Below are positions 31,624 to 34,254 of a stretch of 64,000 nucleotides of DNA, piece after piece. The translations under genes were made by a program, and so were the position numbers. Each line of letters starts with the position of its first letter. Position 1 is the stretch's first letter. This DNA comes from a virus, in IMG/VR virus record IMGVR_UViG_3300021963_009201, positions 126,034 through 190,033 of that record. The stretch is one strand, 5' to 3'. The notes beneath the pieces are model-generated. The model was not told where the DNA came from. It searched no databases and worked only from the letters and a program-made list of their open reading frames with translations.

Positions 31624-34254
31624 TTACGAACGGCAGCGTTTGCAGACGCGACCACTTGCCCGGAATGCTTCCTTCTGTTCCTGCTTTGCCACGTAGTAGC
31701 TGGTGTTGCAGGAGACACAGGTGAGATTCCAGGTCCTGATGTCGTGGTAAACGTGGTGTGCATTTCCATCGTCATCGATCGTCAGATCGGCAGCGATGTA
31801 GCCATAGTTGGCCAATGCATCCATCAGGTACCGGAACGGACCCACGTCACCGCCATCGGTATCGACCTGAGAGGTGATGACGAAGTTGTCGTTCACCTTG
31901 CCAGTCGACTTCAATGGCATGTCTTGGGCAGCCACGTACAGGGCGAGGAGCAGGAGATCTCGCTCATCACCCTCACGCTGAAGGATTCCGGGGACAAGAA
32001 GCTTTTCATCTACTTCACCCTTCTTGTGCCAGAGTCCCTCTTTGATACCTGAACGGATACGGACCCAGGCCTCCGATGAGAGACCTTTGATCATCTCAGG
32101 CGGATTACCTTGACCCTTCCAATCATTCAGGGCTTGCTGGTGCTCTTCTTCCTTCCGAGCATTCTCTGCTGGAATCTGGGAACGGAAGTTCAGGACCAAC
32201 TTTCTGGCATCGGCCATGATAGGACTACCATTGGGGAACAGTGCCCTGATGGATTCATCCACCAGACCGTGGTTCTCCTGAGCGAAGATATTGATCTTAC
32301 GATCGTACTTCACGATGGCATCCGTCATGGTCTTTGTCATGAGGGACAGCTTGTCATTGTCCACAAAGTTGACTCGATGACCCGGATTGTCCGACAGGAA
32401 CTCCTTGAGCACCTTCTCGAACCCGAAAGCGCGAGTGGTATTCCAGTAGGCCTTGGAAATCGGACGACCAGATGCGAGGACTTCACGGACAAGATTGGCC
32501 GAGTAGTTCAACACGAACTGGACATCATCCGGATCGGACGAATCTACCACATCGGACAGCATGCCCGGCATGGTAGATGGAAGGGTCTTGAACACCCAGC
32601 GATACAGGAATAAGCTGTTGATGTATGCACCGAGCGCAGCATTCTGCCCTGACAGTCCGCGGATCTGCTCTATGACATGGTCACGAGTCAGAGCCTGGAT
32701 TTCAGTTTTGGCTGGCTTGCCCTGGCTGGGGAGCCCAGTGAAGGTGACGAGACCCTCACGGATGAGCTGACCCAGTGGCTTGGGCATCCGATCCAGGTCC
32801 GACTTGGCAGACATCTGGAACGCGAACGTTTCAGTGCCCTTCGAGTCGACGTGGCGGATTCCCTTGGCGCTCGTACGAAACATAGCATACGAGTCCATAG
32901 GCATACGCCATGCCAGGATCCGGTGGTTATTGCGCGAATCACGCACGGACATCACGGTGAAGTGATCATCACCATCATGACCGCCAAAATCGACCGAATG
33001 ATCAATCCAGTCGGAATCGCACAGGAACCACACATCGGCCCCAGGATGATACTCGATGAAGCCCTTCTTGGGGGTCTCCACCTTGTATCCCGCCAGGCGC
33101 AGCATCGAGACTGACTTAACAGTCTTGAAGTGAGCGTTTGGCAGAGGGAACCGAGGATGGCCATTGTTGTCGACCATGTTGGTACGATGGTTTATTGCCA
33201 CCGAGGTAAGCATGGACGGAGAGGTACGGTAGTCGAAACCACGCGAAGCAGCTTCAACTACAGAGTACCTGTTAAGCACCGTGTTTCCAGGAATGCCAAG
33301 ATCCTTCATCTGTTTCCAAAGGAAGGATTCAACATCCGTGAAACGTTCGGTGAGTTCACCATTGATGACCTGCTGGTAGGCATTCTCCAGATGGTCATTG
33401 AGTGACTTACTCAGCATGTCCTGAGTGAACAGCTGGGTAGTACCGTTGGTGACGGCATGGAACCACGCGAGGGCCTGGATGTTGCTGTAGGCCTCGTTCT
33501 TCCCACCATCAGGTTCGGCGATGATGAACCTCTTACCACCGTCAGTAACCTTGATGGCTGACTTGACATTGGCACGAGAGGTGTACACCATCACACCACC
33601 AGGGAGTTCACCACGAGCACGAATTGCATTGCCCTTGATAAATCCCTGCTCAGTCCACAGACGCACGTTCATCTCACGCACTCTGTTGACCTTGCGCTTG
33701 CGACGATCTGTCTTGAAGGGATCTTTGTTCCCATCGACAGACTGCACGAGCATGTCCCAGATGTCCCTAGACAGCACAAACATGCCATCAAGAATCATCT
33801 CGACTTCATCATCCGAGTAGGACGACAGGTCTTCATGCGAGAATGCCCGTACCTCATCTCCTTCGAGGATACGAACAGTGATGTCCATATCATCAGGAAG
33901 AGGGAGGCCGCAGGTGGTCGGACGGTAAGCTTGCTTCTCGTACTTACCGTGGTTCTTGCCATCTGTGACAGTGATTCCTGCCGCAGTGAATGGCGCCAAC
34001 CACCCGTCAACACCGACGTAGTTGACATACACGATGTCAGACTTATCGACGTAGACGTGATTGTTGGCTGGGTGAGCTGCCCATTGGAGAGCAGTTTGGA
34101 GATCCTCAGGGTTCCGAGGATGAGGAAGTACACCGATGATGTACCCCTTGGACCCGACCAGATCAGAGAAGAAGTCTGCGACAACGCGCTTCATTCCACC
34201 CATGTCCGGCCAGGACCGAGTTGCCCTACGTTCGGGCTTTTCTGGATAAGCCAT
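31624..34254 (-). CDS. putative single-subunit two-barrel (double-psi beta-barrel) RNA polymerase, divergent
   Basis: LDGMFVLS (DG motif), R....G.IKG.A (KG motif), GGHDGDD acidic metal-binding motif and RMP; 876 aa; CCAGGGAGG RBS. Confidence 0.62.
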   Translation of the reverse strand: MAYPEKPERRATRSWPDMGGMKRVVADFFSDLVGSKGYIIGVLPHPRNPEDLQTALQWAAHPANNHVYVDKSDIVYVNYVGVDGWLAPFTAAGITVTDGKNHGKYEKQAYRPTTCGLPLPDDMDITVRILEGDEVRAFSHEDLSSYSDDEVEMILDGMFVLSRDIWDMLVQSVDGNKDPFKTDRRKRKVNRVREMNVRLWTEQGFIKGNAIRARGELPGGVMVYTSRANVKSAIKVTDGGKRFIIAEPDGGKNEAYSNIQALAWFHAVTNGTTQLFTQDMLSKSLNDHLENAYQQVINGELTERFTDVESFLWKQMKDLGIPGNTVLNRYSVVEAASRGFDYRTSPSMLTSVAINHRTNMVDNNGHPRFPLPNAHFKTVKSVSMLRLAGYKVETPKKGFIEYHPGADVWFLCDSDWIDHSVDFGGHDGDDHFTVMSVRDSRNNHRILAWRMPMDSYAMFRTSAKGIRHVDSKGTETFAFQMSAKSDLDRMPKPLGQLIREGLVTFTGLPSQGKPAKTEIQALTRDHVIEQIRGLSGQNAALGAYINSLFLYRWVFKTLPSTMPGMLSDVVDSSDPDDVQFVLNYSANLVREVLASGRPISKAYWNTTRAFGFEKVLKEFLSDNPGHRVNFVDNDKLSLMTKTMTDAIVKYDRKINIFAQENHGLVDESIRALFPNGSPIMADARKLVLNFRSQIPAENARKEEEHQQALNDWKGQGNPPEMIKGLSSEAWVRIRSGIKEGLWHKKGEVDEKLLVPGILQREGDERDLLLLALYVAAQDMPLKSTGKVNDNFVITSQVDTDGGDVGPFRYLMDALANYGYIAADLTIDDDGNAHHVYHDIRTWNLTCVSCNTSYYVAKQEQKEAFRASGRVCKRCRS

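Follow-up and report, generated by a model that had tools for sequence, protein, structure and literature searches.

A putative single-chain two-barrel RNA polymerase with a DxDD acidic loop in a large tailed phage

We analysed a 64,000-nucleotide stretch of viral DNA (positions 126,034 to 190,033 of IMG/VR record IMGVR_UViG_3300021963_009201; hereafter the window), and in particular an uninterrupted open reading frame (ORF) of 876 codons which, with its stop codon, occupies window positions 31624-34254 on the minus strand. The 190,033-bp record is judged 90% complete and comes from a large, uncultured tailed phage. We consider it probable that the ORF encodes a single-chain two-barrel nucleotide polymerase of the clade that includes QDE-1, RDR2, YonO, gp66 of a crAss-like phage and the RNA polymerases (RNAPs) of Thermus phages, and that this protein is most likely the phage's non-virion DNA-dependent RNAP. 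This reading draws on the fold of the protein, the invariance of its motifs throughout a family, and its paralogy with a second gene in the tail module of the same phage.

The start codon of the gene, an ATG, is preceded at a distance of 6 nucleotides by a ribosome-binding site, GGGAGG. A first-pass annotation, made from the sequence alone, had listed four motifs in order, and all four were located in the 876-residue ORF: LDGMFVLS at residues 155-162 (33769-33792, minus strand), RLWTEQGFIKGNA at residues 198-210 (33625-33663, minus strand), the acidic loop GGHDGDDHF, a presumed Mg-binding site, at residues 424-432 (32959-32985, minus strand, exactly where it had been placed), and WRMP at residues 449-452 (32899-32910, minus strand). 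The same annotation had described the acidic motif as one residue shorter and the R-x-P motif as following rather than preceding it. Both descriptions hold: relative to DxDxD, the third Asp is found at i+3 instead of i+4, and R450-x-P452 lies downstream, about 20 residues C-terminal of the loop. A further element upstream of the loop, R368-x-P370-x-P372, had been missed; by its position it would answer to the beginning of the second barrel, not to the canonical R-x-P.

Close metagenomic homologues of the protein (n=20) are 58-98% identical to it, and when 1.84 billion representatives were searched with a profile, 138 clusters (50% clustering) were returned, mostly of 800-1000 residues. Column counts were taken from an alignment of 127 family members at about 20% identity. 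D427, D429 and D430 were each kept in 126 of 126 aligned members, giving a D-x-D-D loop throughout. The D-x-D-x-D signature is not present in the family, and position 431 is never Asp-dominated. R450 and P452 were likewise each found in 126/126, D156 in 120/120, K207 in 122/122 and K231 in 120/123. The complete set of near-invariant columns comprises D156-G157, K207, K231, Q260, G424-G425, D427, D429, D430, R450, P452, G542 and D571. As these columns persist at about 20% identity, the motif set is a hallmark of the family and chance is excluded; judged from the sequence, its occurrence in the 876-residue ORF is far beyond what chance would give.

No meaningful match was obtained in Pfam, in PHROGs or, with the single sequence or a profile as query, among the sequences of PDB chains, and nothing meaningful was found by tblastn against 50,697 phage records or in the ESM Atlas. 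No Pfam domain was detected in ten divergent family members, and the family members that we checked carry no functional annotation, their source name being 'hypothetical protein'. The exception is a weak family match, P0151 (1191 residues, E 3.7e-4), whose cluster is named 'ribA/ribD-fused uncharacterized protein'. A search of IMG/VR for related loci yielded one relative, a fragment judged 32% complete, and no description of a DxDD-type phage RNA polymerase was found in the literature searched. The enzyme is of a known kind, and the family to which it belongs is absent from Pfam, PHROGs and the literature searched and departs from the signature that defines the class.

The fold was predicted with AlphaFold2. 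An alignment of 85 diverse family members gave a model with a mean predicted local distance difference test score (pLDDT) of 92.3 and a predicted template-modelling score (pTM) of 0.90; an alignment of the 20 close homologues gave an unusable model (pLDDT 47.8). When the confident model was compared with the PDB using Foldseek, the top matches were all RNAPs of the single-subunit two-barrel kind, at probability 1.00: QDE-1 (E 3.4e-8), RDR2, P74 gp62, phi14:2 gp66 (E 6.8e-4), P32 gp64 and P23-45 gp96. VIA-align, which is independent of Foldseek, was run against 48,161 representative chains and recovered RDR2 (Z 13.4, 596 residues aligned), QDE-1 (Z 10.7, 604 residues), P74 gp62 (Z 9.6, 385 residues), gp96 (Z 7.0) and gp66 (Z 5.0), whereas the best non-polymerase chains were helical hairpins with Z no higher than 5.6. 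Re-alignment of the Foldseek list gave Z 13.9 for RDR2 and Z 10.2 for P32 gp64. Among predicted viral structures in BFVD, the best matches were two uncharacterised proteins of uncultured Caudovirales (template-modelling scores 0.76 and 0.66), followed by a phage 'RdRP', crAss-like fragments and P23-45 gp64. The proposal of the first-pass annotation that the protein is a two-barrel RNAP is supported by a confident model matched to the same group of enzymes by two independent aligners, and the predicted catalytic core has the overall fold common to solved RNA polymerases with two double-psi beta-barrels (DPBBs). A polymerase derivative that is inactive or has a structural role, or a fold assignment that is an artefact of prediction, would agree with the poor model from the shallow alignment and with the failure of sequence profiles to find a known polymerase. 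We regard this as highly improbable: the deep-alignment model is confident, its matches are far above background in both aligners, and the fact that three Asp, two Lys and R-x-P stay strictly invariant among sequences that diverge widely argues for catalysis.

The model divides the protein into a series of domains, all encoded on the minus strand. An N-terminal alpha/beta domain (residues 1-114; 33913..34254), delimited by the secondary structure of the model, ends in a K-x-x-K-R motif in which K104 is kept in 119/120 members; the alignments to RDR2 and QDE-1 take it in, starting at model residues 4-8. The first, beta-like barrel (DPBB-B; residues ~115-250; 33505..33912) contains D156-G157, R198, K207-G208 and K231. 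More than 25 stand-alone DPBB chains from three unrelated groups, formylmethanofuran dehydrogenase (FMD) subunit D, the p97 N-domain and designed DPBBs, align to model residues 113-250, each weakly (Z 3.0-3.5), and this identifies the first barrel as the carrier of the D-G and K-G motifs. A helical connector (residues 251-364; 33163..33504) starts with the conserved Q260 motif and leads to the region of the putative second, beta'-like barrel (DPBB-A; residues ~365-480; 32815..33162), which lies inside the full-length RDR2 and QDE-1 alignments. The order of elements in this region is R368-x-P-x-P, G424-G425-x-D427-x-D429-D430, a beta-hairpin with strands at 431-438 and 444-450 in the model, and R450-x-P452. 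Beyond it lies a conserved helix, residues 539-555 (32530..32649), with G542 in 122/124 and N546 in 111/125 members, followed by an E-x-x-(I/V)-D571-Q motif in which D571 is kept in 123/123. From their order in the chain, this helix is a candidate bridge helix and the D571 motif a candidate equivalent of I-D-x-x-K in YonO. The mostly helical C-terminal domain (residues 576-820; 31795..32529) may be clamp-like, to judge by its position in the model; the RDR2 and QDE-1 alignments reach model residues ~819-839. The chain ends in a four-strand zinc ribbon (31627..31737) with C846, C849, C871 and C874; about 45 of the 127 aligned members retain these Cys.

The best structural matches, with Z scores of 10-13.9, were Neurospora QDE-1 (2J7N, 7Y7P-T) and plant RDR2 (7W82, 7W84, 7EU1). 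Their alignments extend over ~570-600 residues, between model residues 4 and 839, and thus take in nearly the whole chain; these enzymes are single chains in which a beta-like barrel precedes a beta'-like barrel, as is predicted for the phage protein. They differ from it in sequence (~10% identity, and the phage protein has no match to the Pfam RdRP family, PF05183) and in the acidic loop, where they have D-x-D-G-D and the phage protein has DxDD. The phage protein also has its R-x-P after the loop, and it carries a C-terminal zinc ribbon. The Thermus-phage non-virion RNAPs, P23-45/P32 gp64 and P74-26 gp62 (8F72, 8F5M; PMC10770324), gave Z 9.6-10.2 over 385-410 aligned residues. They are likewise single-chain two-barrel enzymes encoded by phages, with a virion paralogue as partner, and by eye the first barrel of gp62 has similar D-G, R...K-G and N-V-K-E motifs. 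In gp62, however, R-R-P comes before D-Y-D-G-D whereas here DxDD comes before R-x-P, and the present protein is ~230 residues longer. The likeness is structural only, the hhalign probability between the family profile and P74 gp62 being 0.6%. A weaker match was the virion RNAP gp66 of crAss-like phage phi14:2 (6VR4), whose acidic loop is DFDID. Both aligners picked up its two-barrel fold (Foldseek E 6.8e-4; Z 4.3-5.0 over 440-486 residues), but it has 2166 residues, is packaged in the virion and keeps the D-x-D-x-D spacing; its published description gives the loop, which is also non-standard, as DFDxD.

YonO of the Bacillus prophage SPbeta (PMC5467207), with 839 residues against the 876 here, resembles the present protein in the order of its motifs. 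A profile of 24 sequences was built around YonO as given in the SPbeta record. Seven motifs, among them DG, R..KG, K, Q, the acidic loop and a later Asp, are colinear in the two proteins. D156 would pair with D249-G of YonO, R198...K207 with R266...K271-G, K231 with K316, and Q260 with Q355, the last pairing coming from a non-significant hhalign alignment. In both proteins a conserved helix is followed by a conserved Asp (D571 here, D625 in YonO, where D625 and K628 are invariant), and both have a C-terminal CxxC...CxxC, which is invariant in YonO. They differ in that R-S-P (492-494) precedes D-N-D-G-D (535-539) in YonO. Profile comparisons of the family by hhalign with YonO, as a single sequence or as the 24-sequence profile, and with the YonO-like protein of 0305phi8-36 all gave probabilities below 1%, and barrel-by-barrel comparisons with YonO were also non-significant (P 0.04-0.08), giving hints on motif order only. 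As these comparisons with YonO fall short of significance, the mapping of motifs rests on order and fold. The YonO profile found no match in this genome, and detected the 0305phi8-36 protein at E 1.4e-14. By terminase, the closest cultured relatives of the phage are the 0305phi8-36-like Bacillus phages and Moorella phage MTATph1; 0305phi8-36 carries a canonical YonO-like gene, and the DxDD family profile found nothing in the genomes of 0305phi8-36, MTATph1 and WH1.

The position of R-x-P bears on the architecture of the second barrel. In YonO and P74 gp62 this motif lies ~35-45 residues before D-x-D-G-D. When hhalign was restricted to this region, the R-x-P of the family was paired with that of YonO and the loop block was treated as an insertion, again non-significantly (P 0.077). 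Such an alignment would agree with a re-threaded second barrel without demonstrating one, and either re-threading or the simple insertion of a hairpin may account for the order seen in the sequence. An altered site could also serve altered chemistry. In that case the DxDD loop and re-ordered barrel would be used for DNA synthesis, as in archaeal PolD, or for untemplated tailing, and the replacement of the literal DxDxD in all 126 members, together with the ability of the two-barrel core of PolD to make DNA (PMC7708050), would suit such an enzyme. This appears very unlikely to us. RNAPs are present among the structural matches listed, whereas no PolD chain is, and the pattern of Lys and Asp is otherwise that of RNAPs. 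Moreover, the phage has genes for a DnaB-like helicase (genome positions 89198-90655) and for its own DnaE-type DNA polymerase III alpha subunit (94219-97545; domains PHP, NTPase, finger and HHH), so that the role of replicative polymerase is already filled.

A distant paralogue of the putative polymerase was found in the tail module of the same genome. This 1441-residue ORF, at genome positions 38758-43083 and ~83 kb before the start of the window, aligned with the family profile in hhalign with a probability of 98.1% (E 1.2e-13) over ~210 columns, in which its G-G-x-D-x-D-D loop and the following K/R-x-P were aligned with those of the 876-residue protein. With the four-member family of the 1441-residue ORF the probability was 93.6%. 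The ORF has only three relatives in a collection of 5.8 billion proteins, and a search of IMG/VR for it returned no relative. Its gene follows tail-fibre, tail-sheath and head-like genes and lies between genes for proteins of 2212 and 3096 residues. These two giants showed no homology to it and are not paralogues, and the second large ORF of the window, 15014-17599, was also compared and is not a paralogue of the 876-residue protein. The genome therefore has two paralogous putative polymerases, one of them among virion genes, which is the arrangement that marks the virion/non-virion pairs of P23-45, phiKZ and AR9. It differs from the Thermus phage arrangement in that the virion paralogue is a separate gene of 1441 codons without homology to the adjoining giant genes.

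We also looked for other components of a transcription apparatus. Profile searches of the 90%-complete genome gave no match to a beta' DPBB, a T7-like RNAP, the Pfam RdRP family (PF05183, at E<=10, although PF05183 detects B. subtilis) or sigma-70 region 2. Sigma-70-like promoters were not enriched around the polymerase gene, 12 being found against 11.9 expected. The main rival to a DNA-dependent transcriptase is an RNAP of the same fold that copies RNA or single-stranded DNA, as do QDE-1 and RDR2, either to prime replication of the phage DNA or to make complementary RNA. Such an enzyme would fit the identity of the best structural matches, which are RNA-dependent RNA polymerases, and the setting of the gene: RecA/UvsX-like and replication-type genes are near, and a gene for a single-stranded-DNA-binding protein (SSB), whose proximity the first-pass annotation had correctly noted, lies ~3 kb away at window 28474-28758 (minus strand). 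The link to SSB is retained in a relative (42% identity for its cluster representative), where the order is polymerase, genes of 172 and 187 codons, DUF4326 and, further on, SSB. No primase was seen among the large ORFs scanned, the scan not being exhaustive. We nevertheless consider an RNA- or single-stranded-DNA-templated role unlikely, because the characterised phage members of the clade, YonO, gp64/gp62, gp96 and gp66, are DNA-dependent transcriptases (PMC5467207, PMC10770324), a paralogue in the virion module suits a programme of transcription better than priming, and the profile searches found no other candidate RNAP or sigma factor in the genome.

We favour a DNA-dependent RNAP, which could work as follows. 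K207 and K231 of the first barrel (~115-250) would contact the phosphates of the nucleoside triphosphate and the RNA 3' end, and D427, D429 and D430 of the second barrel region (~365-480) would lie at the barrel interface and bind the catalytic Mg2+. The bridge helix would be helix 539-555, with the helical C-terminal part and the zinc ribbon serving as clamp and nucleic-acid grip. By analogy with YonO (PMC5467207) and with gp64 and gp96 of P23-45 (PMC10770324), the enzyme would transcribe phage DNA without the host polymerase as a non-virion RNAP, and the 1441-residue paralogue would be the enzyme that is injected and begins the infection. In this proposal, Mg binding by the DxDD loop, RNA synthesis on DNA, the timing of action and the division of labour between the paralogues are inferred. 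The terms 'early' and 'non-virion' are taken solely from gene position and from the tail-module paralogue.

Several points weigh against this assignment. The literal DxDxD signature is absent from the protein, and the order of R-x-P is opposite to that in YonO and gp62, so that the second barrel may differ in threading. The fold does not tell synthesis on DNA from synthesis on RNA, and QDE-1 and RDR2, the closest structures, belong to RNA-dependent or dual enzymes. Pfam, PHROGs, PDB sequences and hhalign provide no sequence-level link to any characterised polymerase, and, as the record is judged 90% complete, the missing sigma factor and host-type promoters are weak evidence. More tentatively, we propose that the beta'-like barrel might be re-threaded, the acidic loop coming before the R-x-P strand and a hairpin beyond the loop taking the place of a canonical strand. 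The chain would then reach the same active-site geometry by another path, with three Asp spaced i, i+2, i+3 in the loop, and the enzyme and its tail-module paralogue could form a self-sufficient, host-independent transcription system in a lineage of ~190-kb phages.

Downstream of the polymerase gene, co-directional genes occupy 29416..31563 on the minus strand, in the order SLOG-like, cupin-like, DUF4326 and an ORF of 150 codons. The first is a weak YAcAr/SLOG-like gene just downstream of the polymerase (31039-31563, minus strand), the second a weak cupin-like gene (30474-31187, minus strand) and the third a DUF4326 gene (30058-30477, minus strand; E 1.3e-12); a strong terminator-like hairpin follows the 150-codon ORF (29416-29446). 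These genes probably form one operon with the polymerase. Through the DUF4326 and SLOG-like neighbours and the 'ribA/ribD-fused' cluster name, the family may be connected with the chemistry of nucleotides or ADP-ribose. The polymerase gene lies within a GC-rich block, window 20000-38000, of 0.44-0.53 G+C, with flanks of 0.34-0.40.

Enrichment of 8-mers yielded a weak candidate for a late promoter, TTACTATA or a variant with one mismatch, usually followed by (T/A)A. Sites of this motif were found at genome positions 8806, 13373, 28887, 53760, 55729, 79760 and 187009 (window 60976), and lie 22-100 nucleotides upstream of several structural genes. Of the sites with one mismatch, 31/279 are intergenic, compared with 6% of the genome. 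The large terminase (929 residues; window 55065-57854, plus strand) has an internal segment, residues 190-562, that matches phage ribonucleotide-reductase genes with 28% identity, while the flanking residues match terminases; the segment looks like an intein or homing-element insertion shared with NrdA genes. Among RNA features, a Pistol ribozyme adjoining a tRNA-Met (25963-26039, minus strand) scored 59.7 bits, above the Rfam gathering threshold, and no hammerhead ribozyme reached the Rfam gathering score anywhere in the window, including 36141-36931, where two had been proposed from the sequence. A tmRNA (3763-4155, minus strand; 98 bits) and nine tRNAs within 4225-25776, all on the minus strand, were also present, as was a gene for a rhomboid-family membrane protease (36963-37748, minus strand; Pfam Rhomboid E 2.6e-11).

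DxDxD has been treated as a hallmark for finding two-barrel RNAPs, and both gp64 and gp96 were found by searching with it (PMC10770324). The family described here is sizeable, purely metagenomic and of phage origin, always has DxDD and carries R-x-P on the other side of the loop, so that searches based on the motif miss real members. It provides a natural test of the variation that is tolerated in the metal site and barrel threading of an ancient enzyme. Polymerases of this type, being small and made of one chain, also have practical interest as tools for transcription, and the two paralogues point to a further independent instance of transcription run by a phage.

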